Below, one piece after another: positions 35,967-63,856 of a DNA stretch of 64,000 nucleotides. Source of the stretch: Gammaproteobacteria bacterium (GTDB taxonomy: Bacteria > Pseudomonadota > Gammaproteobacteria > Eutrophobiales > Eutrophobiaceae); contig OZ245888.1 in the NCBI GenBank assembly GCA_965229565.1, forward strand, positions 37,801 to 101,800, in the 5' to 3' direction. The notes below the pieces were generated by a model. It made no database searches and had not been told where the DNA came from. It saw only the letters and a program-made list of their open reading frames with translations. Position 1 is the first letter of the stretch; every line of letters starts with the position of its first letter. Both the position numbers and the translations under genes were made by a program.

Positions 35967-36248
35967 TCACAGAACTTCTTTGTCTTCCTCCTTTAGGTTG
36001 AGATATTGTTCCGGATTATCATCAAATTTATCCAGACAATTTTTTGAACAAAATCGATAAAGCTGACTCTCATATATTTTTCCATAGCCCTTATCAGGTT
36101 CGACATGCATGCCGCAAACAGGATCAGCATGATTTGGTTGACTATGCGAGTGAGTGTGAGAGCCATGAACCATATGAGCACCACAACCAAAACGCATCAT
36201 CAAGTAAAAGAATAATGCGAATAACAAAAATGAACCTAAACCTTCCAT
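35967..36248 (-). CDS. YHS-domain membrane protein with His-rich segment
   Basis: TM helix, HGSHTHSHSQPNH, and a YHS motif (DPVCGMHV...YRFCSKNC). Confidence 0.55.
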   Translation of the reverse strand: MEGLGSFLLFALFFYLMMRFGCGAHMVHGSHTHSHSQPNHADPVCGMHVEPDKGYGKIYESQLYRFCSKNCLDKFDDNPEQYLNLKEEDKEVL

Positions 36249-36306
36249 AACGTTACCCTCATGCTTAACCTGTTTTAAAGCATTAAAAATTCTTCCTCAT
36301 ATAAAT

Positions 36307-38829: not shown

Positions 38830-39036
38830 CTCTCCTTTATTTAAACGTTATTCATTAATATTCTGTCCATGCATATGTTCCATGTCTTTTATCATGGCAC
38901 CAATAATAAAATAAGGATATTCCAGTCCGTCTGAAAGATGATATTTAAAGTCAAAGTATGTCCTGCATAAAATATCAATACGCCTATTAAAAACGCAATA
39001 TTTCCTAGAAAAGCCGCCAATTCGCACCATGTATAA

Positions 39037-39474
39037 CTAAGTAATACTCTCTATCAAATGACATATGGAGTCGCCAACCGGAATAGAATCGTCCATGTTT
39101 TCCCATTGCCGTAATGCTTTTTCCATTCTTTTTTGTAATACCATTGCTTCATTAAATTGATTTTTATTCTTTTCTATCCTTTTCTTAATTATATCCCTCA
39201 CCAATGGGCAAGGGCTTTCGCTTTTTTCACTTGCTATAATAATCTGCTTAATTTCATTAAGCGTATATCCCAATATTTTTGCTTTTCCTATAAATTTCAA
39301 GCGAATCAGATCTGCATGACTGTACATCTGATAATTATTGGTTTTATTTCGTACTGGCTTTAGTAATCTCTTTTTTGTATAAAATCGGACCGCGTCAGTT
39401 GTCACATGGGCTGCATCAGCAAGTTCCTTAACCTGATAAAAACTTATTTTTTTACTATACACTTCTGAATTCAT
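39037..39474 (-). CDS. MerR-family transcriptional regulator
   Basis: N-terminal HTH (VKELADAAHVTTDAVRFYTKKRLLKP) and a coiled-coil dimerisation region. Likely start is MNSEVYS (39474) rather than the ORF-track 39504. Confidence 0.65.
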   Translation of the reverse strand: MNSEVYSKKISFYQVKELADAAHVTTDAVRFYTKKRLLKPVRNKTNNYQMYSHADLIRLKFIGKAKILGYTLNEIKQIIIASEKSESPCPLVRDIIKKRIEKNKNQFNEAMVLQKRMEKALRQWENMDDSIPVGDSICHLIESIT

Positions 39475-39690
39475 TAGCATCGACACCAAAAATGTTTCAT
39501 ACACGTAATTACTCTATTAATTCATCAGTCTAAAACATAGGTCTTAGACACAGGTCAAGCCTGACTTTGATTTTATATAATTCCCATAACTCTGTCTCAA
39601 CCACTACCATATTATTTTTAAATTTTCTCATGTCTATATCTATTCTAATTTTATTATTCATAAATAGTTTGGTTTCTATATATCTAGAAG

Positions 39691-40008
39691 CTATTTATTT
39701 TTTATACTGTCATTATTAATCTTAATCACATCATCAACAGGTGAAATTGATATGAAGCCATCATCATATGTGCCCGCATATGCATTGGTAACAATACAGT
39801 CAGTAATTTTTTTTATGCCTTCTTCTTCTGATACTATTTCTACACGTATATGTGTAATTAGGTCTGGCATTTCAAATAATCTGTGTGGGTTTTCGTAACC
39901 ACTCACACCAACAGTAGTGATATGTGGCACATTCAATTCTTTAAGTTTTGTTTTAATCTGCGCGAGCATTTCGCTGCGGATCACGGCAGTCACTTTTTTT
40001 AGCCTCAT
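39691..40008 (-). CDS. P-II (GlnB)-like small protein adjacent to the RND pump
   Basis: 105 aa with a P-II-like N-terminus (MRLKKVTAVIRSEMLAQIKTKLKELNVPHITTVGVSGYE). Confidence 0.4.
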   Translation of the reverse strand: MRLKKVTAVIRSEMLAQIKTKLKELNVPHITTVGVSGYENPHRLFEMPDLITHIRVEIVSEEEGIKKITDCIVTNAYAGTYDDGFISISPVDDVIKINNDSIKNK

Positions 40009-40058
40009 AATTTCACCTGTTATTTATTTTTTGATAACTTTAAATGAAAATTTACAAG

Positions 40059-43000
40059 TCAAAATTTCAGCGCATAGTTCTTCCATACAAAATAAACAAC
40101 TGGAATTACGATCAATGTTAAAGCTGTCGCACTTATCATCCCTCCGATCATGGGTGCTGCGACACGCGTCATAATTTCAGAGCCTGATCCTTTTATAAAC
40201 ATGATTGGAAGTAAGCCGGCAACGGTCGAACATGTTGTCATCATGATAGGTCTGACACGTTGGCTTGCAGCATCGATAATATTGCTAATCAACTTTTCTC
40301 TACTAATCTTTTTTTCTGGTGAATCAATAGATTTATTTAGAAACTCAAGCATAACAACGCCAGACTCAACTGCGATACCTGCTAATGCGATAAAACCCAC
40401 GCCGACAGCTACAGATAAATTATAATTTAAGAGATATAAAAACCATGCCCCCCCACCAAGCGCAAAAGGCAAAAAGCCCATGATTAAAAATACATCACCT
40501 AATTTTTGAAAGTTAAGATAAAGCAAAATAAATATAATGACTAAGGTAATTGGCACAACGATAGTTAACCGCTCCATTGCCCTTAGCATATATTCATATT
40601 GTCCGGACCAACTTATAGAATAACCTGAAGGTAAATCCACATTTTTTGCAACATGTTCTCGAGCTTCATTCACGTAACTGCCCAAATCACGACCTTTTGT
40701 ATCAACGAATATCCAGCCATTTATTCGCGCATTTTCGCTTTTTATCATTGGTGGGCCATCTGTTATATTTACAGATGCTACATCCTCTAACGGGACTCTC
40801 GCACCAGATGGCGTCACTACGGGCAATAAACGTAATTGTTCCAGTGAGTCACGAAGTTCATGTGGATAGCGGATATTTATTGGATAACGCTCCAGTCCCT
40901 CTACTGTTTCAGCAACATTCATCCCGCCTACTGCAGTACGAACAATGTCCTGAATATCACTGATATTAAGCCCCAATCTAGCGGCATCAATCCTATTAAT
41001 ATCCACAATAAGGTAGCGTCCGCCTGCAACTCGCTCCGCATAAACCGAAGCAGTACCTGGAACATCTTTAAGTGCTTTTTCAATCTGACGGCCGATATCT
41101 TCAATAACTTCAAGATCTGTACCGGCAATTTTTATACCAACAGGAGTCTTTATACCGGTAGCTAACATATCGATACGTGTTTTAATTGGCATTACCCATG
41201 CGTTAGTAATTCCAGGCAATTTTACTAAAGCATTAAACTCTGCTTTTAGTTTTTCAAGTGTCATACCCTCACGCCATTCATTACGAGGTTTAAAACGAAT
41301 AAGTGTTTCAATCATTGTTAGAGGAGCTGGGTCAGTTGCTGTTTCAGCACGGCCAATCTTTCCAAATACGGTATCAACTTCCGGGACAGTACGAATCAAT
41401 TTATCCGTCTGCTGTATAATTTGCTGCGCCTTGCCAATGGAAATAGCAGGCAATGTTGTCGGCATATACATCAAGTCGCCTTCATCCAGATCCGGCATAA
41501 ACTCACTACCTAACTGAGTGAATGGCCAGAGTCCGATAACCATGATCAATAATGCAACAAATACTGTTGAAATAGGGAAATGAAGCACGAATCGTATGAT
41601 TGGCTCATAAAAAATATTTAATAAACGGGTTATAGGATTTTTTTCCGAGGATATGACCCGGCCTTTTACAAAATATCCCAGTAACACAGGCACGACAGTA
41701 ACAGCAAGAATGGTTGCTGATATCATTGCATAAACCCAGGTAAATGCCAGTGGTGAAAACATACGGCCTTCCTGCGCCTGTAGTGTAAAAATAGGTAATA
41801 CACTTAGTCCGGTTATGAGCAAGGAAAAGAACAATGGCGGTCCCACTTCTGTTGTTGCCTTCATAATAACTTTCCAATGATCAGCATCATCATTATTTCG
41901 TTCAATATGTTTATGAACGTTATCAATCATGACGATTGCAGCGTCAACCATGACGCCTATTGCAATAGCAATTCCTCCCAAAGACATAATATTGGCATTG
42001 ATTCCCTGAATATTCATAATGATAAATGCCATTAATATCCCAAGAGGGAGACTAATAATAACAACCAAGGCGGACCGAAAATGTAGAAGAAAAAAGATAC
42101 AAACCAACACCACTAAAAGTAGTTCCTGTAGCAATGCATCTTTTAACGTTTTAATTGCCCGTTCAATTAAGCCGGAACGATCGTAGGTTTCAACAATTTC
42201 GACGCCATCTGGCAATCCTTTTTTCAGCTCGTTTAACTTTTCTTTAACGGAATCGATTACTCTTTTAGCATTTTCACCCCAGCGCATTACGATAACGCCA
42301 CCAACTACTTCTCCCTCACCATTAAGTTCAGCTATACCACGGCGTAACTGTGGGCCGATTCGTACTTGTGCTACGTCTTTGAGTAAAATCGGCGTTCCTC
42401 TGACATTGACACCTAACGGAATATTACGTAATTGTTCAAGACCGGTAATATAACCGGTAACCCTGACCATATATTCAGCTTCTGCCATTTCAATAACAGA
42501 TGCCCCTGCTTCTTGATTGGCTTTTTTAATAGCATTGCTAATTGTTGAAATGGGAATATCGTAGGCACGTAACTGATTAGGATCGACAATTACCTGGTAT
42601 TGTTTGACCATTCCACCAATAGTGGCAACTTCAGCAACACCTGGAACAGTTTGTAATTCATATTTCAGGAACCAGTCTTGCAATGATCGCAATTGTGATA
42701 AGTCATGATTCCCTTTTCGATCAACCAAAGCATATTCATAGACCCAACCTACTCCTGTAGCATCAGGACCAAGTTCAGGCTTAGCACCTGGAGGTAATCT
42801 ACTCGTCACCTGACTTAAGTATTCAAGTACTCTGGATCTTGCCCAATATAAATCCGTTCCTTCTTCAAAAATGACGTAGACATATGAATCACCAAAAAAA
42901 GAATATCCCCTGACAGTAACAGCATAAGGAACAGATAACATTGCAGTGGTTAGTGGGTAGGTAATCTGATCTTCAACAACCTGCGGCGCCTGCCCCGGAA

Positions 43001-43157
43001 AAGGTGTTTTTATTATGACTTGCACATCAGAAAGGTCCGGTATTGCATCTACTGGCGTCTGCTTAATGATATATACGCCACTAATCATGACAACGACAGT
43101 AGCAAGTATAATTAAAAATCGATTATTGATTGACCATTTTATGATCTGCTCTATCAT
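40059..43157 (-). CDS. cusA: Heavy-metal efflux RND transporter, CusA/CzcA family
   Basis: 1032 aa with the 12-TM RND topology and an HME-type N-terminus (PVDAIPDLSDVQVII...). Confidence 0.85.
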   Translation of the reverse strand: MIEQIIKWSINNRFLIILATVVVMISGVYIIKQTPVDAIPDLSDVQVIIKTPFPGQAPQVVEDQITYPLTTAMLSVPYAVTVRGYSFFGDSYVYVIFEEGTDLYWARSRVLEYLSQVTSRLPPGAKPELGPDATGVGWVYEYALVDRKGNHDLSQLRSLQDWFLKYELQTVPGVAEVATIGGMVKQYQVIVDPNQLRAYDIPISTISNAIKKANQEAGASVIEMAEAEYMVRVTGYITGLEQLRNIPLGVNVRGTPILLKDVAQVRIGPQLRRGIAELNGEGEVVGGVIVMRWGENAKRVIDSVKEKLNELKKGLPDGVEIVETYDRSGLIERAIKTLKDALLQELLLVVLVCIFFLLHFRSALVVIISLPLGILMAFIIMNIQGINANIMSLGGIAIAIGVMVDAAIVMIDNVHKHIERNNDDADHWKVIMKATTEVGPPLFFSLLITGLSVLPIFTLQAQEGRMFSPLAFTWVYAMISATILAVTVVPVLLGYFVKGRVISSEKNPITRLLNIFYEPIIRFVLHFPISTVFVALLIMVIGLWPFTQLGSEFMPDLDEGDLMYMPTTLPAISIGKAQQIIQQTDKLIRTVPEVDTVFGKIGRAETATDPAPLTMIETLIRFKPRNEWREGMTLEKLKAEFNALVKLPGITNAWVMPIKTRIDMLATGIKTPVGIKIAGTDLEVIEDIGRQIEKALKDVPGTASVYAERVAGGRYLIVDINRIDAARLGLNISDIQDIVRTAVGGMNVAETVEGLERYPINIRYPHELRDSLEQLRLLPVVTPSGARVPLEDVASVNITDGPPMIKSENARINGWIFVDTKGRDLGSYVNEAREHVAKNVDLPSGYSISWSGQYEYMLRAMERLTIVVPITLVIIFILLYLNFQKLGDVFLIMGFLPFALGGGAWFLYLLNYNLSVAVGVGFIALAGIAVESGVVMLEFLNKSIDSPEKKISREKLISNIIDAASQRVRPIMMTTCSTVAGLLPIMFIKGSGSEIMTRVAAPMIGGMISATALTLIVIPVVYFVWKNYALKF

Positions 43158-43160
43158 GAT

Positions 43161-44468
43161 TTATTCCTCGCCCATATCCATTTGTTCCATTGAGTTATTA
43201 CTCATGGGTTCTTCAACGGATTGCATTCGACTCAGACTGGCTTTGAGATTTGATTCGGAATCAATCAAAAATTGTGAAGAGGTAACAACATTATCTTCTT
43301 TGTTTAATCCCGAAATAATTTCCACCCTATCTCCACTTTCAATACCTGCTACAACTTCCTGCGCATGGAAACGACCATCACCAAGCATTTTAATAACTCG
43401 TTGCTGTTTAGCATCTCGTATCAAGGCTTCACGTGGAATACTTAATGCCTCCTTTTTTTCTCCAGCATAAACAGTAACGTGCGCGTACATATTCGGCATT
43501 AATTTTTCTTCGGAGTTATCAAAACGTAACCGAATGCGTAACGTCCGTGTAACAGGATCAAGATCAGGGTAAATATATTCAACTTCACCTTTCCAGATAA
43601 CACCCGGCATTGAAGGTAATGTAGCTTCTGCACTTTGACCTATTTCAACCCAATTCGCTTGTCGTTCAAATACTTCAGCTAACAACCAAATCGTATCAAG
43701 ATTGGCAATACTTAATATCTGGGTCTCCGGTTTGATATACATTCCTTCACGTACACCAAGATTTATTAACACACCTGATTGTGGCGCATAAAAACGAATA
43801 TTCTGGGTAACTCTTTTTTCTTTTTCCAATCTATCAATCTGAGACTTTGAAATACCCAATGCAGAAAGCTTCTCTTTCGATGCTTCTGCCAGTGATCGAT
43901 TGCCACCCGCTAATGCCTGTAAGTATTCTTCCTGTGCATTTACCAATGGTGGAGAATAAAGCTCAAATATAAGTTGCCCACGTTTAACCTCTTCTCCCTC
44001 AGCACGAACTTGTAGTTTTTCTATCCAACCTTCTGTTCTTGTATGAATATGATTAATTCGTGTTTCGTCGTAATCAATATAACCAACCGTACTTATTCTT
44101 TTCCATAGAGGTCCGAGTTCAACCCTGGTTGACCGTACGCCCAGATTATTGATCACCTCTGGACTTATTTTGACTACAGATGTCTCCTCATCCATGTTCT
44201 CTTCACTGCCTTCATAAACAGGAATAAGGTCCATGCCCATTGGAGACTTTCCAGGTTCATCCCGACGATAGCCTGGATTCATAGGAGCAACCCAATACAT
44301 TATTTTCTTCTCTTTTGATTCAGAGTTTGAATGCCCCGTATGCCCATCCGGATTCATGTCCATATTGAACTTGAACACTAGTTGCGAGGTATCAAATTTC
44401 TTTTCAATGAAAGCGCCAACTAAAATCCCGATGGCAAGCAGAATTAATATCTGAATTATTTTTTTCAT
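43161..44468 (-). CDS. cusB: RND periplasmic adaptor (membrane fusion protein), CusB-like
   Basis: N-terminal anchor with HlyD/biotin-lipoyl-like and beta-barrel domains. Overlaps the cusC stop. Confidence 0.75.
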   Translation of the reverse strand: MKKIIQILILLAIGILVGAFIEKKFDTSQLVFKFNMDMNPDGHTGHSNSESKEKKIMYWVAPMNPGYRRDEPGKSPMGMDLIPVYEGSEENMDEETSVVKISPEVINNLGVRSTRVELGPLWKRISTVGYIDYDETRINHIHTRTEGWIEKLQVRAEGEEVKRGQLIFELYSPPLVNAQEEYLQALAGGNRSLAEASKEKLSALGISKSQIDRLEKEKRVTQNIRFYAPQSGVLINLGVREGMYIKPETQILSIANLDTIWLLAEVFERQANWVEIGQSAEATLPSMPGVIWKGEVEYIYPDLDPVTRTLRIRLRFDNSEEKLMPNMYAHVTVYAGEKKEALSIPREALIRDAKQQRVIKMLGDGRFHAQEVVAGIESGDRVEIISGLNKEDNVVTSSQFLIDSESNLKASLSRMQSVEEPMSNNSMEQMDMGEE

Positions 44469-45730
44469 ATCGTTTCTCTTACGTAATACAATAGATTGGC
44501 TTGTGACTTGGCACGATCAACACGAATCTTCAACATATCTAGTTGTGTATTTAACTCAGTTAATCGAGCACGCATTAATGTTGTAAAGTCAGTTAGATCA
44601 TTTTGATACGCTTTTAACGTGGATGATGAATTTTGCTCGGCATCAACCATTGCTCTTGTTTCATATAATTCAAGTCGTTTACCAAGACGTATCCAATTCG
44701 CATATTCCTTTTCCAACGACTGTCTGAATTCCAGTAAACGATCGCTGCGCGCGAACTGTGAGGCCGCGTGATCCAGCTTGCTCGCAGATAGGCGTTTATC
44801 CTGTCTTTTATTCGTGAAGATAGGCAGATCGACCAGGATCATGGCCGAGGCAAAGTCATCCCTACTACTACCATCCAGATTATTACCTGACCGGTTACCG
44901 TAGGTGAGATCAAGCATCCAACCCGGCTTGTATTGCTGTTCAGCAAGATTAATATCCTTCTCGTTAACCGCAATCATGGCATCTTCAATTTGAATTCTGG
45001 GATGTCGAGGTAATTCCTGGACCAGTTGCTGTAAATCTCTTATCGGCGTTAAGAAGGGAAAGTTGTCGCTTACCCTGTCAAATTGAATACTGTTACCGAG
45101 CCAACGTTTCAACTCGGCCAGTGTCATGGCATGCTTGCCCTGAACCTCTACCAGGCGGTCATCAACCAATGACAGTTCAAGTTGTGCACGCAGCACATCA
45201 TGCTGGTTATCTCGCCCCACTGCATATTGCCTTTCGGTCACTTCCAGTAACTGGCTGAACAAATCACGATTTTCGAGTAATAACTTTTCTGTCTCCTGGC
45301 TAAGGTAAACATCCAGGTAATTGCTGCGTACTGATAACAAGACATTGCGGGCCTGTAACCTTGCTCGTGCGGCATCAATGTCTGCATAATGCCCGGTCTT
45401 TTCCTGCCGCAGTTCTAACGTGTCGCCACGCGGAAAAGACTGCTGTATTCCAACCTGTACCTGCGTCATTGGTTCCTGACTTCGATCGAAACTGTTTATT
45501 GGTAGATTCATCATGCCAAACTTCATAACGGGATCAGGCAATTGGCCTTCAGCAACAGCTAATTCATCATATTTTTCAGCCGTTACTTCAAGCTTCTTGA
45601 TGGTCAAATCAGATGAAAGAGCAAACTCTTCTGCTGCTTGCAACGTCAATTCATTTGCAAATAATTGCGTAGAAACAATGGCAGATAAAATAATCAGAAA
45701 TAATTTATTTAGTATGGATAGGCCCATCAC
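44465..45730 (-). CDS. cusC: Outer-membrane efflux protein (TolC family), CusC-like
   Basis: Signal peptide and two OEP repeats. 421 aa. Confidence 0.75.
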   Translation of the reverse strand: MMGLSILNKLFLIILSAIVSTQLFANELTLQAAEEFALSSDLTIKKLEVTAEKYDELAVAEGQLPDPVMKFGMMNLPINSFDRSQEPMTQVQVGIQQSFPRGDTLELRQEKTGHYADIDAARARLQARNVLLSVRSNYLDVYLSQETEKLLLENRDLFSQLLEVTERQYAVGRDNQHDVLRAQLELSLVDDRLVEVQGKHAMTLAELKRWLGNSIQFDRVSDNFPFLTPIRDLQQLVQELPRHPRIQIEDAMIAVNEKDINLAEQQYKPGWMLDLTYGNRSGNNLDGSSRDDFASAMILVDLPIFTNKRQDKRLSASKLDHAASQFARSDRLLEFRQSLEKEYANWIRLGKRLELYETRAMVDAEQNSSSTLKAYQNDLTDFTTLMRARLTELNTQLDMLKIRVDRAKSQANLLYYVRETI

Positions 45731-52491: not shown

Positions 52492-53748
52492 TCAGGAGAA
52501 AGTCATTGTTCTCTCGGTGGGTAGTTCATCGATATCCCCTGCCATGATGCGGTTACGAACATAAACACTGATTCGGTAGCGTTCCATATCCTGAAGGTCA
52601 TGAAAACTTACACCGATAGAGATATCGTCCTGATCCTCGTTGAGGTCTTTCCATAACACTGTCGCATTCGTGGTGACCTTGAGGTAATCATCCTCGGAAT
52701 CAGATGGAATATAAAATTCCAGGAAAAGTTTACTCCCCAGTTCGATGTCAGAGGTAACACGCAGGTTGGCACCGCTGACGGAAAGATTCACTTTCTCTGC
52801 AAAGATAAAACCCTCATCAGGCTGACATTGAATTCTTACCTTGAGTGTCACAGCGGCACGATGATCCCAGCGCAATTCTTTATCCATATCTTCTATGTTG
52901 CAATCGATACCCATTGCTTTTTCCAGGGCCAGTGCAAACTCACGACAGGAATGGAAACGTTTACGCGAATTCTTTTCCAGTGCCTTCAGTACCACCTTGT
53001 CAACTTTCTCGGGAATATCCTTGACCAAGCTTGATGGTTTATTAACCGGTGTTTCCTGATGACTTTTGAGCATCTCGCTGACAGTGCTGGCTTTTGTAAA
53101 AGGATGTCTGCCGGTCAACATCTTGTAGAGGATGATCCCAAGCGAATAAATATCTGCACGGGCATCCATGTGCTGGCAATTGATATGTTCCGGTGACATG
53201 TAACCCGGTGTACCGTTGGGTTTACCTTCAAGGAAAGACTGTTCTTCAAGAAATTTGGCAATACCAAAATCCATAATCAACACTTCACCACTGAGACTGA
53301 TGCGGATATTGCCGGGCTTCAAGTCGAGATGAACAATACCAAGGTTGTGTGCATATTCCATTGCCCACAGTATCTTTTGCATGATCTTTAGCGCCTGGCT
53401 TACCTTGAATGGTTTTTTTTGATTGGCAAGTATCTGATCCAGGTCGCCACCGCTGATCAGGCGCATAACGATCAGTACCGATTTCTTATAATCCAGGATG
53501 TCGTACACGGGGACAATATTGGAGTGTTCTGCCAGCGCGTGTATGCGGGCCTCGCGGATGATGGATTCCTTGTTGAATTTCCTGTTCACCAGGTCAGTTG
53601 AACGGACCTTGATCGCGACATATCGCTGTAGCTCATGGTCATAGGCCTTGTACACGTCTCCGAAGGTGCCACTGCCAATGACGTCCTTAAGCTCGTACCG
53701 GCCTATCCTTGTTCCCTCTAGCGTCACTGGTTTGGTCTTCGCGAACAT
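52492..53748 (-). CDS. Hanks-type Ser/Thr protein kinase fused to a C-terminal PilZ (c-di-GMP-binding) domain
   Basis: - Kinase motifs: GSGTFGDVYKA, VAIK, HLDLKPGNI, DFGIAK, SPE.
- C-terminal ~130 aa carries RWDHR (RxxxR) and, 27 residues later, NLSVSG ((D/N)xSxxG). Confidence 0.6.
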   Translation of the reverse strand: MFAKTKPVTLEGTRIGRYELKDVIGSGTFGDVYKAYDHELQRYVAIKVRSTDLVNRKFNKESIIREARIHALAEHSNIVPVYDILDYKKSVLIVMRLISGGDLDQILANQKKPFKVSQALKIMQKILWAMEYAHNLGIVHLDLKPGNIRISLSGEVLIMDFGIAKFLEEQSFLEGKPNGTPGYMSPEHINCQHMDARADIYSLGIILYKMLTGRHPFTKASTVSEMLKSHQETPVNKPSSLVKDIPEKVDKVVLKALEKNSRKRFHSCREFALALEKAMGIDCNIEDMDKELRWDHRAAVTLKVRIQCQPDEGFIFAEKVNLSVSGANLRVTSDIELGSKLFLEFYIPSDSEDDYLKVTTNATVLWKDLNEDQDDISIGVSFHDLQDMERYRISVYVRNRIMAGDIDELPTERTMTFS

Positions 53749-54806: not shown

Positions 54807-55004
54807 TTACTCTGAAGCTTCTGACGGTACGTCGTCAGATTGCTCTTTCTGTATTCGGTCGTAGATTTCTTCGCGGTGTACGGCGACGTCCTTGGGGGCG
54901 TTCACACCAATTCTCACCTGGTTTCCTCTGATACCCAGTACGGTAACGTTGACCTCGTCACCGATCATGAGCGACTCACCGACTCTTCTGGTCAATATCA
55001 ACAT
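54807..55004 (-). CDS. csrA: Carbon storage regulator CsrA/RsmA
   Basis: [48 protein letters not shown] is near-identical to canonical CsrA. Confidence 0.95.
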
Positions 55005-56538: not shown

Positions 56539-59142
56539 TTAGAGCTGACTCCGGATCCAGTCGGGAACCTGTTTTAATGCGGCTTCCAGTGCGGTCGGAT
56601 CATTACCCCCGGCCTGGGCCATATCCGGGCGACCACCACCGCGACCACCCACCTGCTCGGCCACGAAATTCACCAGGTCGCCAGCCTTGATACGGTCAAC
56701 ACTGTCCTTGGTCACACCGGCCACCAGGCTCACCTTGGAATCGTTCACTGTGGCCAGTATAAGCGCGGCCGTACCGAGCTTGTTCTTGAGTTGGTCAACG
56801 GTATCACGCAGCGTTTTTGGATCGGCACCATCCAGTGTCTTGGCTATCACCTTGATACCGTCAATCACCTCGGCTTCATCGGCCATGTTGGTACCGGCAC
56901 TGCTGGCGAGTTTACCCTTCAACTGTTCCAGTTCCTTTTCCAGTTTCCGGATGCGGTCGACCTGCTGTGACAAACGACTATCGACGCTATCGATATCTGT
57001 CTTTAATAACTCGGAGACATGTTGCAATTTGCCTTCCACGTTTTCAGCCCAGTTCAGCGCACCGATACCGGTAACGGCTTCCACCCGGCGTACACCAGCG
57101 GCAATACCGGTCTCGGAGATAATCTTGAATAAACCAATATCGCCGGCTCGCTCCACGTGCGTGCCGCCACACAATTCTTTTGAAAATTCACCACCGATGC
57201 TGAGTACGCGTACCGTATCGTCATACTTTTCACCGAACAGCGACATGGCACCGGACTCTTTTGCTTTTTCCAGTGGCATTACCTGTACCAACGTTTCCTC
57301 GTTGGCCAGTATCTGTGCATTGATCATTTGTTCCAGTTGCACGATCTCTTCACGGGTTAATGGATCGTTATGGGAAAAATCAAAACGCAGGCGATCATCG
57401 GCAACCAGCGAGCCCTTTTGAGTCACATGATCGCCAAGTACCTTGCGCAGTGCCGTGTGCAACAAGTGTGTAGCAGAATGGTTGCGCATGATGTGTTCAC
57501 GGCGCGACGCATCAACGGAGGCATTCACGATATCGCCGACATGTAACTCGCCGGTACGTAACACACCAAGATGAATATGTGACTTGCCCTGCTTCTTGGT
57601 GTCTTCAACTTCGAAAAAGACATCACCTTCAAATAACTCACCGCGGTCACCTACCTGGCCACCCGACTGCGCGTAAAAAGGTGTTTCCAGTAATATGACG
57701 CCACCGATATCACCCTGCTTCAAGGTCTGTACGTTACGGCCATCCTGGTAGAGTCCGGTGACAGTGGTCTTCTGCTGTGTTCTTTCATAGCCGGTAAAGT
57801 TGGTAACAAGGTTGTCGTCGGCACTGACCATAATGCCCGCGTCAAACTTGCTGGCCGCACGGGCCCGTTTGCGCTGTTCGGCCATGGCCTTGTTAAAGCC
57901 ATCCATGTCGACACCTAAGCCGCGTTCGCGGGCGATGTCAGCAGTGAGATCAACCGGGAAACCGTAGGTGTCGTAGAGTCGAAATACATCATCACCGGCA
58001 ATCTGTTTATTTTTACCAAGTTCCGCGATGACCTCGTCCAGTACTTTCAGCCCCTGCTCCAGTGTCTCGGCAAAACGCTCTTCTTCTGCCAGCAGCACAC
58101 GCTCTATATGTTGAAGGGCTTTACCCAGTTCCGGGTAGGCGGCACCCATCACCTGTTCCAGCGGCACAACCAGTTTATGAAAGAACGGCTCCTTGAATCC
58201 CAGCTTGTTACCATGACGGATAGCACGACGAATGATACGCCGTAACACGTAACCACGACCCTCGTTAGCGGGAATTACACCATCGGTTATCAGGAAGGCA
58301 CAGGAACGGATGTGGTCTGCAACGACACGACTGGATGTCAATTCCAGTTCATCATTGCCTGCAAGATCTTTCGTTGCATTGATCAGATGCTGAAACAGAT
58401 CGATGTCGTAGTTGTTGTGGACGTGTTGCATAACCGCGGTAATGCGTTCAAGACCCATACCGGTATCCACCGAGGGATGCGGGATAGGTTTAAGTTCACC
58501 ATCCGATCCACGATCAAACTGGGTAAAAACCAGGTTCCAGATCTCGATATAACGATCCAGTTCGGCATCGGCGCTTCCGGGCGGACCACCAGGGACGTCT
58601 TCGCCATGGTCATAAAAGATCTCACTGCACGGACCACAAGGGCCGGTATCACCCATGGACCAGAAATTGTCTTTTTCGCCGCAACGACTGAAACGATCTT
58701 TCGATACACCGATTTCCTTTAACCAGATATCAGCGGCTTCATCGTCGTCCTCGAACACCGTGACCCAGAGTTTTTCTTCCGGTATTTTCAATACGTCTGT
58801 CAGGTATTCCCAGGCAAAACCGATTGCCTCTCTTTTGAAATAGTCGCCGAAGCTGAAATTACCGAGCATTTCAAAAAAGGTATGGTGACGCGCAGTGTAA
58901 CCCACGTTTTCAAGGTCGTTATGCTTACCACCGGCACGCACACAGCGTTGCGAACTCACCGCCCGCTGGTAGTTACGCTTCTCCCTGCCAAGAAACAGGT
59001 CCTTGAATTGCACCATGCCGGCGTTGGTAAATAAAAGGGTCGGGTCGTTACTCGGTACGAGCGAACTGCTGGGCACCTCAGTGTGCCCTTTCGATTTAAA
59101 GAAATCGATAAATGACTGGCGGATATCGTTACTGCTTTTCAT
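56539..59142 (-). CDS. alaS: Alanine--tRNA ligase
   Basis: 867 aa with class II aaRS motifs, editing-domain HxxxH/CxxxH, and a C-terminal DHHA1-like region. Confidence 0.9.
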
Positions 59143-59558
59143 TCTTTCAGGACGAGACTGATCTGTTCCGATGTAAAACCGCGACTATATAGGAAACGCG
59201 ACTGTTTTGCCTTATTTTGGTAGTCGCGTGGAACGTCACTGCCGAATTTTTTTACCCTGGTTTGCTCGGCCAACGCCAGCCAGTCCAGCTGATCGGCATT
59301 CAGACAATCTGCTATCAGCCCGGTGTCTATACCACGCTGATTCAGTTCCTGTTTGATCTTGAGTGGGCCCTGTCCCTTGTTGTAACGCTGTTGCACAAAA
59401 CTCTCTGCAAAGCGGGCATCGCTTTGTAGCCCCTCTGCAGAGAGTTTATCCAGTAGCTCTTCGATTAATTCATCGTCTTTACAGTTGCGAGACAGCTTTT
59501 GCCGCAGTTCCCTGCGGCTGTGCTCACGTCTTGCCAGGAAGTCGCAGGCTTTCTGCAA
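59139..59558 (-). CDS. recX: RecA regulator RecX
   Basis: 139 aa three-helical-repeat protein between recA and alaS, with a RecX-like repeat pattern. Confidence 0.7.
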
Positions 59559-59578: not shown

Positions 59579-60643
59579 TCAGGCTACTACCTCTTCATCC
59601 GGGGCGTCCTCGGCCACGTCTTCTTCAGTGACCGGTAACACGGTGGGGAGTAATTGTGCGCGAATCTTTGCCTGTAGTTGATCCGCGATTTCCGGGTTTT
59701 CTTTCAGGTAGGTTCGTACATTGTCCTTGCCCTGGCCGATGCGCTCATCGCCGTAGCTGTACCAGGCACCGGCCTTGTCGATCAGCCCCAACTGCACGCC
59801 GAGATCGATGATCTCACCATGACGGGAGATGCCCTCACCGTAAAGAATATCAAACTCGGCCTGCTTGAACGGGGGTGCTATCTTGTTCTTGACGACCTTG
59901 ACGCGGGTCTCGTTGCCTACTACTTCATCACCCTTCTTGATGGCACCGATACGGCGAATGTCGAGTCGCACACTGGAATAAAACTTCAGTGCATTACCAC
60001 CGGTTGTCGTTTCCGGGTTACCAAACATAACACCGATCTTCATACGGATCTGGTTAATAAAGATGACGCAGCAATTGGCGCGCTTGATGTTACCGGTCAG
60101 TTTACGTAGTGCCTGTGACATCAGGCGTGCAGCCAGACCCATGTGCGAGTCACCCATTTCACCTTCAATTTCTGCCTTGGGTACCAGTGCCGCTACCGAG
60201 TCGATGACGACCAGTTCTACCGCGCCACTGCGAACCAGCATGTCGCAGATTTCCAGTGCCTGTTCGCCCGTGTCCGGTTGCGATACCAGCAGTTCATCAA
60301 TATCCACGCCCAGCTTTTCAGCATAGATAGGGTCCAGTGCATGCTCGGCATCGATAAAGGCGCAGGTTTTACCCTGTTTCTGTGCCTCGGCGATGGCCGA
60401 CAGGGTCAGCGTGGTTTTACCAGAGGATTCCGGACCGTATATTTCAACGATACGACCATACGGTAAACCGCCTGCGCCCAGCGCAATATCCAGTCCCAGG
60501 GAACCGGTACTGACAGTCGGAATTGCCGCAACCGGCTGGTCTCCCATTTTCATGACCGAGCCCTTGCCGAACTGTTTTTCGATCTGGCCCAGTGCCATAC
60601 TCAGTGCACGTTTCTTGTCGTCATCTACCTTTGCTGTTGCCAT
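59579..60643 (-). CDS. recA: Recombinase RecA
   Basis: GPESSGKTT Walker A, L1/L2 loops, canonical length (354 aa). Confidence 0.95.
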
Positions 60644-60677
60644 CGTAATATCTCCTTATCCAGTTTATCGATGCCTG

Positions 60678-60697
60678 TCGTTCCCCCTCGAACGACC
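60678..60697. promoter_or_regulatory. Perfect 7-bp inverted repeat GTCGTTC-N6-GAACGAC in the recA upstream region; candidate operator
   Basis: Located 35-55 nt upstream of the recA start, in the divergent intergenic region shared with the WYL regulator gene. I found no CTGT-N8-ACAG LexA box by inspection of 60644-60812. Confidence 0.35.
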
Positions 60698-60812
60698 AGT
60701 TGCCGATAGAATAGGCAATACTTTTTTTGATGTCAATATTTTTTATTACCTTTATATTTTTTACTATGTAATAAATTCTATCGAGGTATTTTCATTTCGG
60801 TATACTTTGACC

Positions 60813-61682
60813 ATGTTGAATGAAATCAAGTGGGCCACCCGCCAGCGGCTGCAGTTTATAGAAGTAATGGCTTACTACACAGGTGTGGTCACACGCAGCG
60901 ACGTGGCACGGGCCTTTGCCATTTCCGACGCGGCCGCGACAAAGGACCTCAAGTACTACGGGGATATTGCCCCTGGCAACCTGAACTACAAGCACAGCGT
61001 GTTCGGTTTCGTTCCTACGGCCGATTTCAGCGCCGTATTCGCCGATCTGTCGCCCACCACCGTATTACCCATGCTGGAAGCCAACCTGACCGTGGTTGGC
61101 AGTCCTGACCCGGATGAACCGGTATTTGGCGTTGCCTCGGAAAACCTGGTGTTGCCCAACCGTTTGCCCGGCCAGGAGGTACTGAGCCAGATTACACGGG
61201 CCATCCATGGTAGCAACAGGCTAAAAGTCAGCTATCACTCACTATCTGAAAATTCAAATATTGAAAGGATTATTGAGCCACATGCCCTGGTGAACACCGG
61301 TTTTCGCTGGCACGTACGTGCCTACAACGAGGACAGTTTTGATTTCCGGGATTTCGTTCTGTCACGTTTCGTGGAGGCCACCTGTCTCGAGGAAGCGGCC
61401 GAATCCAGTGCCCGCTACGACGAGGACTGGATAGAATTCGTGGTATTGAAGCTTGGCCCCCACCCAGCTCTGAGCCAGAAACAGAAGGCTAGCCTGCTGA
61501 TCGACTACAAGGCAGAAAAAGAGATCATTGAAATACGCATTCGCCGGGCACTGATCGGCTACCTGTTACGACAGTTAAGCGTCGATACCAGTGCAGACCA
61601 TTCGCGTGACCCGATACAGTATCAACTGGTGGTATTGAACCGCGACGAGATCGAGCCGTTTGCGAGTTGGGCGTTTAACTAA
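60813..61682 (+). CDS. HTH-WYL domain transcriptional regulator (PafBC/DriD-like architecture), divergent from recA
   Basis: The ORF-track 5' extension overlaps recA and is rejected. ATG at 60813 gives MLNEIKW... N-terminal wHTH (RQRLQFIEVMAYYTGVVTRSDVARAFAIS), central WYL-like segment (IIEPHALVNTGFRWHVRAYNEDSFDFRDFVLSRF), and a C-terminal extension. Confidence 0.6.
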   Translation: MLNEIKWATRQRLQFIEVMAYYTGVVTRSDVARAFAISDAAATKDLKYYGDIAPGNLNYKHSVFGFVPTADFSAVFADLSPTTVLPMLEANLTVVGSPDPDEPVFGVASENLVLPNRLPGQEVLSQITRAIHGSNRLKVSYHSLSENSNIERIIEPHALVNTGFRWHVRAYNEDSFDFRDFVLSRFVEATCLEEAAESSARYDEDWIEFVVLKLGPHPALSQKQKASLLIDYKAEKEIIEIRIRRALIGYLLRQLSVDTSADHSRDPIQYQLVVLNRDEIEPFASWAFN

Positions 61683-62187
61683 ACAGCCAGGACTTTAAAA
61701 CGCGGTACGTCACCCCACCTGGCCCTGATTCGGAAACGATCAGTGCAAAACGATTTATATGCCAATCGATAGAAAATCGATTTTTAGCAATGATGTTTTG
61801 TTTGACCTTTCTGGCAAAGGTCACGTGTGGTTTATAGCGACGTTTATCGGGCTTGATGCCATGCGGTTTCAGTATTACAGCGATAGCTTCGACAAGATCT
61901 AACAACTGTGGCGGGTGCTGTTCCGGCCCAAGCCAGGCAATACGGGGTTTTTCCCACCAGCCAACGCGCGTGAGTGTCAGCGTAAACTGTTTAGCCTTTA
62001 TTGATGCCGCATCCCTGGTCACTTCCTTTTGAACATGTTCGGAAACCTCGCCGAGAAATGCGAGTGTCATGTGCAGGTTTGATTTTGCTACCAGTCGAAC
62101 AGGCTCATCTTGAAACTGCGTCGCAACCTGGTAAAGCTGGTCACGCGTTTCATCATCCGGCCACAAGGCAAAGAACAGGCGCGACAT
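61675..62187 (-). CDS. thpR: RNA 2',3'-cyclic phosphodiesterase (2H family, LigT/ThpR)
   Basis: Two HxT/S motifs (HMTLAF, HVTFAR). 170 aa. Confidence 0.75.
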   Translation of the reverse strand: MSRLFFALWPDDETRDQLYQVATQFQDEPVRLVAKSNLHMTLAFLGEVSEHVQKEVTRDAASIKAKQFTLTLTRVGWWEKPRIAWLGPEQHPPQLLDLVEAIAVILKPHGIKPDKRRYKPHVTFARKVKQNIIAKNRFSIDWHINRFALIVSESGPGGVTYRVLKSWLFS

Positions 62188-62192
62188 GACTG

Positions 62193-63359
62193 TCAGGAAG
62201 AAATGGTAACCATGACCAGCGTCTGGTCATCCTGTTCATTGGAATTACTGACGTGCTGATGATAAGTATCCATGAAGTTTGACATTAACAACTCTGCCGA
62301 GCCGGCCGGGCTTTGTTCCAGTACCGATTTCAAACGATCAAAACCAAACTGTTCACCGGAGATCGATTCGGCCTCGGTAATACCATCGGTATATAAAACA
62401 ATGGTATCGCCCTGCTCGAGCTGCGTGGTTTCCGTAGTCCAGCTATAGTCGCGTTCTATGCCAATCGGTATGCCGGTTTTACTTTGCAGTACGCTGACGT
62501 GGCCTTCATGGTGCTTGATCAATATTGGCAGATGACCGGCAGAGGCGTAGGAAAAAATATCTGTCGATGCATCATAGTTACAAAGAATACCGGTACTGAA
62601 GCCACCGCGATATTCGCGCGTGAAATAATACTTGTTGACGTATTTCAGCACATCGCCGGGGCCGGAGCCGGCCTGGTACTCGTACGTACGCAGGATGGCA
62701 TCGACCATGGCGACCTCTACTGCGGCACCTGGACCATGGCCCGAGACATCCATCAGCCCGACTCCCCAGATCAATGGCGGATTTTCAACCCCGGCGCGTT
62801 TACGAGATGGACGCAGGTCAATCACATCGAAGTAATCGCCGCCGCCGCCAACACTGGGACGGTAATAGGTTGCATAGTCCAGGCCCTCGATACGATGACC
62901 TTCAGATGGCAACAGCTTTTCCTTGATGGTTTTTACTTCACGGATATAGTCCTGGTATTTCTTTTCTTTCCTGTCATTTATTTTTACCAGTCGATCATTT
63001 TCAACCAGTGCATCAACCAGGTTTAATAATAGTTGCGGCTCATAACTATCCATCACTTTTTTACCGGGTGCGGCAGCAAGCAGGTAGTGAGCCCTGGGTT
63101 GTAGTTGCAAGGGAGACAAGATCACGTCATCACAGTCAGTAAATAGTCCCTGCAATACTTCAGGTAAATTTTCAATGGCAAGATACAGGCTGTGGTTATT
63201 ATTAGTTGGTACTTCGAATGGTGCATCGAGCTGTATGTCTTTCTCGTTTCCAAGTACATGCTGCACACCGTCGACTGTGGTCAATTCATACACAGTCATG
63301 CCGGGTAATGCCTGCAGGACCCGCTGCATAAGTGAGGAATAGGCAGAGCCCGTTTTCAT
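62193..63359 (-). CDS. PP2C-family (SpoIIE/RsbU-like) Ser/Thr phosphatase with N-terminal sensory region
   Basis: GLMDVSGHGPGAAVEVAM, LYTDGITEA and DDQTLVMV metal-binding motifs. Confidence 0.65.
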   Translation of the reverse strand: MKTGSAYSSLMQRVLQALPGMTVYELTTVDGVQHVLGNEKDIQLDAPFEVPTNNNHSLYLAIENLPEVLQGLFTDCDDVILSPLQLQPRAHYLLAAAPGKKVMDSYEPQLLLNLVDALVENDRLVKINDRKEKKYQDYIREVKTIKEKLLPSEGHRIEGLDYATYYRPSVGGGGDYFDVIDLRPSRKRAGVENPPLIWGVGLMDVSGHGPGAAVEVAMVDAILRTYEYQAGSGPGDVLKYVNKYYFTREYRGGFSTGILCNYDASTDIFSYASAGHLPILIKHHEGHVSVLQSKTGIPIGIERDYSWTTETTQLEQGDTIVLYTDGITEAESISGEQFGFDRLKSVLEQSPAGSAELLMSNFMDTYHQHVSNSNEQDDQTLVMVTISS

Positions 63360-63856
63360 TCAAGTTCCTGGCTGGTTATGTCAATCAAACCCTGCAAGGC
63401 AAGTAAACAGGCCTGTTCCCTGACCTGCTGTCGATCACCATTGAATTGCACCCGCGTTGTTTTTATTTCACCGGTTGCACCATACCAGCCAAAACAAACC
63501 GTACCCACCGGCTTGTCATCTGTCCCTCCATCAGGCCCGGCAATTCCGGTAACAGACACGCCAAACTGCGCGTGGCTGTTGGCCAGTGCACCGGCCACCA
63601 TCTCTGCAGCAGTTTGCTCGCTGACAGCGCCGAACTGTTCGAGTGTTTCCCGGGAGACGTTCAGCAGTTCCACCTTGGCTTCATTTGAATAAGTCACGAA
63701 ACCGCGATCAAACCATGCCGAACTGCCGGCGATGCTGGTCAGATGCTCCGCCAGGCCGCCGCCAGTACAGGATTCCGCTGTTACCAGCGCGGCTGACAGC
63801 CTGGTCAGGTTTTCAGCCAATTGTTCAACCGTATTAATAATGTTTGGATTTGGCAT
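63356..63856 (-). CDS. CinA-family / NMN amidohydrolase PncC-like protein
   Basis: CinA C-terminal domain signature (ESCTGGGLAE...VSVTGIAGPDGG). Overlaps the phosphatase start. Confidence 0.7.
   Translation of the reverse strand: MPNPNIINTVEQLAENLTRLSAALVTAESCTGGGLAEHLTSIAGSSAWFDRGFVTYSNEAKVELLNVSRETLEQFGAVSEQTAAEMVAGALANSHAQFGVSVTGIAGPDGGTDDKPVGTVCFGWYGATGEIKTTRVQFNGDRQQVREQACLLALQGLIDITSQELE

Follow-up and report, generated by a model that had tools for sequence, protein, structure and literature searches.

A BrxR/CapW-type WYL regulator paired with recA as a candidate substitute for LexA control in Beta- and Gammaproteobacteria

Introduction

The induction of recA in bacteria without LexA is an acknowledged open question (PMC7617703, PMC13010146). 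The known answers, PafBC, DriD and DdaA, are WYL activators of other clades, and the locus described here, from a 64-kb stretch of gammaproteobacterial DNA (hereafter the window), suggests a different solution. In it, recA is divergent from a gene for a WYL-domain protein of the BrxR/CapW type, a kind of regulator that otherwise turns on phage-defence genes upon sensing single-stranded DNA (ssDNA). Sequence comparison indicates that at this locus the regulator has probably replaced the LexA/SOS switch in the control of recA. More specifically, we favour, with a probability of roughly 0.55, a CapW-like protein that would repress recA-recX and its own gene and would be released from DNA by ssDNA. 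Here, we describe the locus, the protein and the conserved DNA between the two genes, and weigh this reading against activation by the regulator, a constitutive recA, a divergent LexA motif and a palindromic operator.

The recA locus and its conservation

The presumed regulated gene, recA (59579-60643, minus strand; Pfam RecA, 1.2e-144), is followed 20 nt on its 3' side by recX (59139-59558, minus strand; Pfam RecX_HTH1-3). According to the ORF coordinates the recX stop codon overlaps the alaS start at 59139-59142, which makes a single recA-recX(-alaS) transcription unit probable. The WYL regulator is encoded on the opposite strand (60813-61682, plus strand; ATG at 60813; 289 amino acids), and the 169-bp intergenic region (60644-60812) is common to both genes. 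Beyond the regulator, Pfam identifies genes for a LigT/ThpR protein (61675-62187) and a SpoIIE-type PP2C protein (62193-63359), as well as cinA (63356-63856, minus strand; CinA/PncC-type domain, Pfam CinA 5.5e-57), in agreement with the identities originally given to these neighbours. cinA has the same orientation as recA and is regarded as genomic context, with no regulation by the WYL protein implied. Within +/-10 kb, where the neighbours are recA, recX, alaS, thpR, PP2C and cinA, no defence genes (BREX, CBASS or other islands) were found, and PADLOC returned matches at the locus only to generic WYL signalling models. Pfam likewise revealed no other repair genes among 30 further ORFs of the window, whose products are instead concerned with transport, cytochromes, copper resistance and the like.

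Across 80 species-level genomes of Beta- and Gammaproteobacteria, recA is divergent from the WYL regulator in 77; two further loci end at a contig edge, yet carry the conserved promoter block described below, which brings the pairing to 79 of the 80. recX follows recA in most of these loci. The rest of the neighbourhood is kept less uniformly: cinA lies 3' of the WYL gene in 66/80, thpR in 20/80 and PP2C in 4/80, so that the nucleic-acid-stress neighbourhood of the original prediction reduces to cinA as its one widely kept member. The regulator orthologs, at 61-92% identity over two proteobacterial classes, are vertically conserved, and across loci the identity of the WYL protein rises and falls with that of RecA (Spearman 0.61, p = 2.5e-8), which is consistent with joint vertical inheritance. 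One of the loci (L073) belongs to Thiobacillus denitrificans, a cultured species. A homolog search seeded with its protein returned only Thiobacillus-like sequences and is silent on isolates of Nitrosomonas and the Chromatiaceae. Taken as comparative evidence, these observations make a strong case for a functional link between the regulator and recA.

The regulator: family, fold and ssDNA pocket

Judged by sequence and by predicted structure, the regulator is a wHTH-WYL-WCX protein of the BrxR/CapW clade, with a three-domain architecture of ~290 amino acids. The WYL call, which had been considered weak, is robust, since PF13280 scores 53 bits (cut-off 21.8) and is covered over 69 of its 70 profile positions; the accompanying remark that the canonical W-Y-L residues are replaced is correct, W-H-V standing in their place within an RWHVR motif (R165-R169). 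RWHVR is a hallmark of the BrxR/CapW clade (PMC11662680). The precomputed Pfam record for the identical protein reads WHD_BrxR, WYL and BrxR_CTD, and NCBIfam holds no model for it. In phmmer searches, residues 2-288 were aligned to five solved BrxR/CapW chains (E 6e-37 to 7e-30), with BrxR 7t8k as the best match (6e-37), the others being BrxR 7qfz and the CapW chains 7tb5, 7tb6 and 9c5g (5e-34 to 7e-30, ~30% identity). An AF2 model of the protein (pLDDT 76) gave the same picture, the top 15 Foldseek matches all being BrxR/CapW proteins (1e-19 to 1e-23). Foldseek E-values to the PafBC, DriD and DdaA clades are 1e-9 to 1e-7 at 13-18% identity, and phmmer matched PafBC over the WYL region only (1e-6) and did not find DriD. 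The divergent gene thus encodes an HTH-WYL protein, as first proposed, with the wHTH-WYL-WCX arrangement extending over its full length; the PafBC/DriD-type architecture then assigned to it gives way to that of BrxR/CapW (E 1e-30 to 1e-37, against 1e-7 to 1e-9 for the structural matches to those other clades).

The residues by which Rl CapW contacts ssDNA are S144, R164, R168 and R184 (PMC11662680), and alignment places S143, R165, R169 and R185 of the regulator at the equivalent positions (PMC11662680). Across 35 orthologs, S143, R185 and the residues of RWHVR do not vary, except that V168 shows at least 90% conservation. Conservation is highest in the wHTH domain, whose recognition helix, I37-SDAAATKDL, is at least 98% conserved among orthologs. 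Comparison with the DNA-contacting residues of known members gives a mixed result: the equivalents of CapW R32 and S42 are kept as R28 and S38, CapW Q45 and S47 are replaced by A41 and T43, and the base-contacting SRQQ of BrxR reads SDAA in the regulator (D39-A40-A41 for R-Q-Q). Such alterations imply a different DNA specificity on the same fold, and the binding mode of BrxR and CapW is not simply transferable, which counts against the CapW-like model.

A conserved block spanning two divergent promoters

The intergenic region contains an ungapped 76-bp block (60707-60782; 18% G+C), a putative promoter/operator segment common to both genes, which aligns without gaps and nearly without variation across 77 distinct beta- and gammaproteobacterial intergenic regions whose flanks cannot be aligned. 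On the recA side, a promoter scan found TTGACA-17-TATTCT (10/12 matches), with a -35 element (TTGACA, or TGTCAA on the plus strand; 60731-60736, minus strand) that is near-invariant in the 77 regions and a -10 element (TATTCT; 60708-60713, minus strand) that lies in conserved columns after a 17-nt spacer and reads TAnAGT in most relatives. From the position of this -10 element, recA transcription is predicted to start at ~60701. On the other side, the regulator has a -10 element TATACT (60801-60806, plus strand), and TATAAT or TATACT occupies this position in 75 of the 77 regions; since the element ends 6 nt before the ATG, the regulator mRNA is probably leaderless in the source genome.

Several related boxes lie within the block. 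Box 1, a TA-N5-TA sequence (TAGGCAATA; 60712-60720), falls inside the recA -10/-35 spacer, where block columns 25-33 are conserved, and stands in an 18-bp direct-repeat register with box 2. RNA polymerase does not require a conserved spacer sequence, and for this reason box 1 is suspected to be a protein site. The candidate operator element E-left (AATA-TTTTT-TATTACCT; 60735-60751, plus strand; inverted repeat I1), with the consensus AATA-W5-TATCACnT, overlaps the recA -35 element and the region just 5' of it. Its mirror, the candidate element E-right (60766-60782, minus strand), lies over the -35 region of the regulator promoter and is overlapped by a minus-strand PSSM match at 60764-60780. 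In the symmetry register of this pair, a mean of 9.6 of 17 positions are complementary across the 77 regions, against 4.1-7.5 in adjacent registers. Between the two lies a central TA-W5-TA dyad (box 3; 60755-60763), with spacings of 18 and 17 bp to the two outer dyads. The best direct-repeat shift in the block is 18 bp (16 columns with at least 70% identity, with PSSM cross-matches among the boxes), and no dominant palindrome was found in it, so that it is best described by a direct repeat at a shift of 18 bp and by a single mirrored element of 17 bp, and both readings fit. The conserved elements are AT-rich and include no single strong 19-25-bp palindrome like the BrxR site, which counts against the repressor model discussed below; the mirrored elements and the dyads overlap both -35 regions.

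Because conservation spans the promoter spacer as well as ~45 bp 5' of the -35 element, it exceeds the needs of a promoter and supports an operator function, and the pattern of conservation makes it likely that the 76-bp block is an operator. This bears on the strongest alternative, which we nevertheless consider unlikely, namely that recA is essentially constitutive, that the regulator controls only itself or acts elsewhere, and that the adjacency is frozen synteny; the block would then combine a strong recA promoter, an A/T-rich UP element and the regulator's own operator. The A/T tracts directly 5' of the -35 element do resemble UP elements, and at one locus (L027) the regulator gene persists apart from recA and retains only the portion of the block proximal to itself. 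A block PSSM, moreover, finds a single site in the window and, in the other loci, the WYL-upstream site only; no extra copy that might hint at a regulon was detected in the 64-kb window or in ~600 kb of fetched loci. However, neither UP elements nor spacers are normally conserved base for base across two proteobacterial classes, and in Betaproteobacteria the W tracts switch from T to A with the flanking TA steps fixed, a behaviour more in keeping with a protein or DNA-shape site than with an UP element. The mirroring of E-left at the regulator's promoter, its overlap with the recA -35 element and the retention of the pairing in nearly all genomes also speak against a regulator without a role at recA.

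A model of ssDNA-released repression

Characterised members of the BrxR/CapW clade repress bidirectional promoters and are freed by ssDNA (PMC9122588, PMC9122589, PMC11662680), and in CapW it is the binding of ssDNA that releases the protein from DNA (PMC11662680). With allostery of this type, the DNA-bound form corresponds to the undamaged state, which is sensible for recA only if binding represses. Proteins of this family are typically domain-swapped homodimers, and their site is a pseudo-palindrome of 19-25 bp that overlaps the repressed promoter. In the proposed model, a regulator dimer would bind the mirrored AATA-W5-TATCAC elements, and probably the related TA-N5-TA boxes too, thereby covering the -35 region of each divergent promoter and repressing recA-recX together with its own gene. 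Upon DNA damage, ssDNA would occupy the WYL-domain pocket (S143, R165, R169 and R185) and, as in CapW, push the two wHTH domains apart, so that the regulator leaves the DNA. The near-consensus recA promoter (TTGACA-N17-TATTCT) could then fire without LexA or RecA co-protease activity, and repression would return once RecA loading and repair have cleared the ssDNA. In this scheme the binding of the elements, the sign of regulation and the role of ssDNA as the signal are inferred from the clade and the layout of the promoters, and autoregulation is suggested by the shared promoter region.

Activation of recA by the same protein, with ssDNA-bound regulator recruiting RNA polymerase at the dyad ~40 bp 5' of the start, is a clearly less probable version of regulator control. 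Two observations count in its favour and against the repressor model: E-left has its W5 centre at about -40.5 from the predicted recA start, a classical position for a class II activator, and PafBC, DriD and DdaA, the WYL regulators with demonstrated action on recA to date, are all ssDNA-stimulated activators (PMC7617703, PMC13010146). The conserved elements also lie mostly 5' of the -35 element. On the other hand, the protein is far closer to the repressor clade (Foldseek 1e-23 versus 1e-7 to 1e-9), its phmmer similarity to PafBC is confined to the WYL region, and ssDNA binding by CapW frees the DNA. The recA promoter has no activator-dependent signature such as a weak or absent -35 element; instead, its invariant consensus TTGACA and 17-nt spacer are not activator-dependent in look, which favours the repressor sign, and the conservation of the spacer suggests occupancy of the core promoter. 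The DriD and DdaA motifs (CGAC-N7-GTCG and CGWCA-N5-TGWCG) occur exactly in 0/78 intergenic regions; with one mismatch the DriD motif is found in 2/78 and the DdaA motif in 0/78, and the window has neither even with two mismatches.

Control of recA by LexA through a divergent, unrecognised motif, with the WYL protein as an accessory, is improbable to a still greater degree. Some lineages do have LexA proteins with non-canonical motifs (PMC3108266), and dual LexA/WYL control of recA is known elsewhere (PMC7617703). In the window, however, no SOS box (CTGT-N8-ACAG, at most one mismatch) is present in 60644-60812, and 77 of the 78 orthologous sequences upstream of recA lack the Beta/Gamma SOS box, the remaining one having CTG-N10-CAG; these scans bear out the earlier statement that recA has no LexA box upstream. 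The conserved block, too, is without a LexA-like dyad, and tblastn with E. coli LexA gave no credible match when run against the 64-kb window and the 80 loci. The Nitrosomonadaceae and Chromatiaceae, which fall in the same taxonomic range, are reported to have no LexA homolog (PMC3108266); a search of the literature on LexA in Thiobacillus denitrificans found nothing informative. The lack of SOS boxes and of DriD and DdaA motifs leaves no competing system at the recA promoter.

The 7-bp palindrome as a probable recA leader hairpin

The original prediction had WYL-type control of recA-recX run through a palindrome, GTCGTTC-N6-GAACGAC, and of this a functional link between the regulator and recA is supported by the conserved pairing and the near-invariant block, whereas the palindrome route is not. 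The inverted repeat is a perfect 7-bp one, as described, and lies at 60677-60696 (arms 60677-60683 and 60690-60696, minus strand), one base to the left of the 60678-60697 first given. In recA-sense RNA it would form the hairpin GUCGUUC-GAGGGG-GAACGAC, extendable to 60674-60699, which begins ~4-7 nt after the predicted start. By itself the palindrome is only modestly unusual: when the 169-nt intergenic region is shuffled, 6.9% of the resulting sequences contain a perfect inverted repeat of 7 bp or more (3-10-nt loop), and for the 64-nt leader the figure is 1%. In the window's gamma clade (the window and loci L001-L030), 26 different hairpin sequences occur among 29 distinct leaders. Compensatory and G·U substitutions preserve the stem; G·U accounts for 35 of the 188 stem pairs, and such pairs form only in recA-sense RNA, as illustrated by L003 (-11.5 kcal/mol in the sense strand versus -2.0 in the antisense). 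Thiobacillus loci, with leaders of 25-28 nt, have no hairpin, and the recognition helix of their regulator is identical. Rfam found no family at gathering score in the recA leader (the one weak match, to GibS, is at chance level, with E = 0.39 and 23.4 bits where the cut-off is 115 bits).

The palindrome thus behaves as a 5'-terminal stem-loop of the recA mRNA, which most likely affects the stability or translation of that mRNA, a role suggested by its position and pairing. As a DNA operator for the WYL protein it was rejected and is, on this comparative evidence, very unlikely, for although it is a perfect repeat in the right intergenic region and its GTCG/CGAC tetramers recall DriD sites, it sits 3' of the predicted start, varies in sequence with RNA-type pairing, is missing from Thiobacillus and differs in orientation and spacing from CGAC-N7-GTCG.

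Comparison with known systems

CapW (CBASS-associated; PDB 7TB5, 7TB6 and 9C5G) shares with the regulator the same three domains, RWHVR and the four ssDNA-contact residues, and is likewise divergent from the operon it controls (here putatively), with a shared bidirectional promoter region. It differs in its partner, a phage-defence operon rather than recA-recX, in the placement of its site, which lies over the -10 element whereas the candidate sites here lie over -35 regions, and in its distribution, CapW being scattered in defence islands and the regulator vertically conserved across two classes. BrxR (BREX; PDB 7T8K/7T8L and 7QFZ) is the best match in both sequence and fold (6e-37; Foldseek 1e-23). 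Its operator consists of two half-sites around an A:T-rich 5-bp centre (PMC9122589), a geometry that the TA-W5-TA dyads of the block resemble. In contrast to the 25-bp near-perfect palindrome of BrxR, the block has three or four related boxes spaced 17-18 bp apart; the base-contacting SRQQ is changed to SDAA as described above, and no BREX or other defence genes are near the regulator.

DdaA (Moraxellaceae), DriD (Caulobacter) and PafBC (Actinobacteria) are likewise WYL ssDNA sensors that control recA without LexA cleavage, and DdaA took over where its lineage had lost LexA (PMC13010146). They belong to other clades and are activators, whereas the regulator is a proposed repressor without their motifs; the accounts of them consulted here do not describe their genes as adjoining recA. 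In its logic the proposed system parallels LexA itself, an autoregulated repressor of the recA promoter that is relieved when ssDNA builds up. The regulator differs in having no S24 peptidase, RecA-mediated cleavage or CTGT-N8-ACAG site, and would read the signal directly.

Concluding remarks

A full-text literature search found no description of a recA-linked member of the BrxR/CapW clade. The model is open to direct testing, given a compact, clearly delimited block, known pocket residues and a carrier species in culture. The broader proposition, that a branch of the BrxR/CapW clade has been fixed as a vertically inherited chromosomal damage sensor which acts as a direct repressor of recA until ssDNA releases it, is one we hold tentatively, at a little under even odds. 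If true, a single protein would substitute, independently of RecA, for the LexA/RecA switch in sulfur-oxidising and related Beta- and Gammaproteobacteria, some of which are reported to be LexA-less, and the WYL damage responses would gain their first repressor-type example. It would also tie a housekeeping sensor of DNA damage to the regulators that control BREX and CBASS, and the pairing of the regulator with recA bears on the origin of the defence-island regulators BrxR and CapW.

recA and its divergent neighbour

The regulator gene (60813-61682, plus strand, starting with ATG and encoding 289 aa) and recA (59579-60643, minus strand) diverge from a 169-bp intergenic region. recA is followed by recX (59139-59558, minus strand) and alaS, and the 4-nt overlap of the recX stop and alaS start (59139-59142) suggests that these two are translationally coupled; csrA (54807-55004) closes the recA-recX-alaS-lysC-csrA string. 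Past the regulator gene lie thpR/LigT, a SpoIIE-type PP2C phosphatase and cinA, convergent with the regulator gene and in recA orientation, and the gene calls contain every item of the locus inventory in the original prediction. The regulator gene and thpR share 8 nt where they converge at their 3' ends (61675-61682). The phosphatase (62193-63359) has a 198-aa N-terminal region without a domain assignment and, together with a Ser/Thr protein kinase-PilZ fusion (52492-53748), flanks the csrA-recA-cinA cluster. A metal-resistance cluster (30150-45730; CopB, the multicopper oxidase CopA, an HMA P-type ATPase and CusCBA-type RND efflux) is unrelated to the finding described here.

An ortholog scan with one genome per species yielded 80 loci with protein identities of 61-89%, carried by Gammaproteobacteria (MAGs labelled Thiotrichaceae, Ectothiorhodospiraceae, Thioalkalispiraceae and Chromatiales) and Betaproteobacteria (Thiobacillus, including the isolate T. 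denitrificans RG, and Hydrogenophilales/Burkholderiales MAGs). Six loci (L005, L014, L017, L020, L022, L023) and one protein (P0159) carry implausible taxon labels (Gemmatimonadota, 'uncultured Enterobacteriaceae', Thermoplasmatota archaeon), and their contigs have RecA, AlaS and WYL genes typical of the gamma/beta group; these are likely binning or labelling errors in public MAGs. The divergent upstream neighbour is recA in 77 of the 80 loci, and in two of the other three the contig runs out some 170 bp ahead of the WYL gene, with the conserved block described below still present. The two genes have become uncoupled in L027 (3600-4870) only, where a rearrangement breakpoint inside the block truncates it near alignment column 78 and keeps the regulator-proximal part; a PilT-like ATPase and a TauE-like membrane protein are now the upstream neighbours in this natural 'uncoupled' variant.

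Among the 80 loci, 66 have cinA downstream of the WYL gene, 20 have thpR and only 4 have the phosphatase. The proposed nucleic-acid-stress neighbourhood, poorly conserved beyond cinA, thus boils down to the common cinA-recA linkage with an oppositely oriented, inserted WYL gene. WYL and RecA identities correlate (rho 0.61, p = 2.5e-8) and no defence genes were found near the regulator gene, which argues for a vertically inherited housekeeping gene rather than a defence-island passenger.

A CapW-like fold and sensor pocket

The WYL assignment, previously considered weak, is secure: PF13280 scores 53 bits (cut-off 21.8) over the full profile. The canonical W-Y-L residues are indeed not conserved, because the clade of BrxR (BREX regulator) and CapW (CBASS-associated regulator) has RWHVR in their place (PMC11662680), here R165-W-H-V-R169. 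Residues 2-288 align in phmmer with five solved BrxR/CapW proteins (7t8k, 6e-37; 7qfz, 3e-34; 7tb5, 5e-34; 7tb6, 1e-33; 9c5g, 7e-30), whereas the PafBC match is confined to the WYL region (1e-6) and DriD gives no phmmer match. The precomputed Pfam record for the exact sequence reads WHD_BrxR, WYL and BrxR_CTD, and the top 15 Foldseek matches of an AlphaFold2 model (pLDDT 76) are all BrxR/CapW (E 1e-23 to 1e-19), with PafBC and DriD ranking below (1e-9 to 1e-7), so that the PafBC/DriD-type architecture first proposed gives way to a BrxR/CapW one.

The residues with which Rhizobium leguminosarum CapW contacts ssDNA (S144, R164, R168, R184) correspond in the 9c5g alignment to S143, R165, R169 and R185, all four invariant among 35 orthologs. 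The recognition helix retains R28 and S38, but BrxR SRQQ is replaced by SDAA, and CapW Q45 and S47 by A41 and T43, so that fold and sensor are CapW-like while DNA specificity must differ from that of BrxR/CapW. Structure and sensor thus place the regulator within this family, whereas defence association and recognition residues do not.

The shared control region

In an alignment of 77 distinct intergenic regions anchored on one motif, 76 bp (60707-60782, 18% G+C) are gap-free in all 77, flanked by unalignable sequence. The block contains the recA -35 (TTGACA, 60736-60731) and, after a 17-nt spacer, the -10 (TATTCT, 60713-60708; TAnAGT in most relatives), both on the minus strand; a promoter scan independently gives the same promoter (10/12 matches), with a predicted transcription start near 60701. 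Unusually, conservation extends to the promoter spacer, TAGGCnATAC(A/T)TTT, and to some 45 bp beyond the -35 on its upstream side. In these parts, TA-N5-TA boxes lie at alignment columns 25, 50, 68 and 85 (period 18/17 bp), the best direct-repeat shift is 18 bp (16 columns at at least 70% identity), and the symmetry register of the window's 17-nt inverted repeat (60733-60749/60768-60784) is kept in all 77 regions (mean 9.6/17 complementary, against 4.1-7.5 in adjacent registers). The repeated candidate element is AATA-W5-TATCACnT, of which copy 1 lies over the recA -35 and a mirror copy over the -35 region of the promoter serving the regulator gene itself. In Betaproteobacteria the W tracts change from T to A and the flanking TA steps are unchanged, as would be expected if a narrow-minor-groove spacer separated two half-sites; BrxR bound to DNA shows this layout, its 10-bp half-sites flanking an A:T-rich 5-bp centre (PMC9122589). 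Across 79 distinct orthologs the recognition helix shows at least 98% conservation, within the most conserved domain (the wHTH), which matches the invariance of the block DNA. A PSSM of the block found no second copy, either in the window or in the remainder of the fetched loci.

Some relatives (L028, with a 471-nt intergenic region, L074, L007, L055 and L059) have insertions to one or the other side of the block: L028 carries a unit of about 25 nt (…TTCGGGATGACAAACCGGG…) repeated three times in tandem between block and regulator gene, and others have recA leaders of 128-199 nt. In no relative is the block itself interrupted. The regulator -10 (TATACT, 60801-60806, plus strand; TATAAT in 58/77 regions) ends only 6 nt before the ATG (60801-60815), which makes a leaderless regulator mRNA probable in this genome. 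This distance is 6-9 nt in 5/77 regions, most relatives have leaders of 38-53 nt, and the betaproteobacterial genes have a GGAG Shine-Dalgarno sequence and an N-terminus longer by 7 codons (296 aa).

A model for control of recA-recX

Characterised BrxR/CapW proteins are homodimeric repressors on pseudo-palindromes over bidirectional promoters (PMC9122588, PMC9122589, PMC11662680), released when ssDNA in the WYL pocket splays the wHTH domains (PMC11662680). The regulator shares their architecture, ssDNA pocket and divergent arrangement, and we propose, with a probability of roughly 0.55, that it is a CapW-like, ssDNA-released repressor of recA-recX and of itself. In undamaged cells it would be DNA-bound, repressing recA-recX and its own gene; ssDNA would bind it directly, and its release would derepress recA-recX.

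A purely autoregulatory or otherwise-targeted protein beside a constitutive recA is an unlikely reading; against it stands copy 1 over the recA -35. An activator of recA at a class II position, as a site over the -35 might suggest, is more doubtful still: CapW-type allostery makes the DNA-bound form the undamaged state, so that repression alone is biologically sensible for recA, and the invariant consensus recA -35 also points to repression.

LexA and other damage motifs

Cryptic LexA control of recA is improbable. The absence of an SOS box upstream of recA, as originally predicted, holds in the window for CTGT-N8-ACAG with up to one mismatch, and CTG-N10-CAG occurs in just 1/78 orthologous recA upstream regions. 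The sole perfect CTGT-N8-ACAG in the 64-kb window, CTGTGTCCGGTAACAG (92-107), is GC-rich at its centre, which real SOS boxes are not; one is observed and about one expected by chance, and the 26 matches with up to one mismatch lie within expectation (shuffles, 20.5 +/- 4.7). Neither the window nor the fetched loci yielded a lexA, and the window has no further repair genes with which a regulon could be probed. Nitrosomonadaceae and Chromatiaceae, which overlap the taxonomic range of the carriers, are reported to have no LexA homolog (PMC3108266). DriD and DdaA motifs occur in 0/78 intergenic regions.

A stem-loop in the recA leader

The palindrome GTCGTTC-N6-GAACGAC, originally proposed as the regulator's site, is a perfect repeat at 60677-60683/60690-60696, one base left of its earlier placement. 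Taken alone it is only mildly improbable (an equivalent arises in 6.9% of intergenic-region and 1% of leader shuffles), and it is placed 4-7 nt past the predicted transcription start of recA. Of 74 distinct leaders, 57 form a 5'-proximal hairpin with a fold energy of -5 kcal/mol or better, variable in sequence; in the gamma clade of the window, stem positions 4 and 5 alternate between G-C, A-U and G·U, and G·U makes up 35/188 stem pairs, possible only in recA-sense RNA (L003 folds at -11.5 kcal/mol in sense and -2.0 in antisense). That the palindrome is the operator is scarcely credible, given 26 hairpin sequences in 29 gamma-clade leaders and Thiobacillus orthologs whose 25-28-nt leaders have no hairpin despite the same recognition helix; sequence variability, G·U pairs and this absence instead indicate a 5'-terminal RNA stem-loop in recA mRNA.

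5'-terminal stem-loops act in mRNA stability or translation, and the recA stem-loop likely does too. Rfam returned no family at gathering score for the leader, the sole match being a chance-level GibS. The hairpin loops (60684-60689) are G/A-rich, often GGA (UUC-GGA-GAA in L003, L006 and L010), and a second GGA lies about 35 nt downstream in the AAGGAGA Shine-Dalgarno sequence (60650-60656); these motifs recall paired CsrA/RsmA sites, and csrA stands at the end of the gene string that recA begins, although a connection is speculative.

Relation to known WYL regulators

LexA-independent WYL control of recA is known from PafBC, DriD and, since 2025-2026, DdaA (Moraxellaceae), all activators from clades other than BrxR/CapW with GC-containing CGAC-type motifs. 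BrxR/CapW proteins are so far known solely as phage-defence regulators; a term count in the BrxR-family survey (PMC9122601) gave 0 occurrences of recA, and full-text literature searches turned up no account of a member linked to recA. The recA-linked regulator, whose function is predicted, departs from its BrxR/CapW kin in not being defence-associated and in its altered recognition residues.
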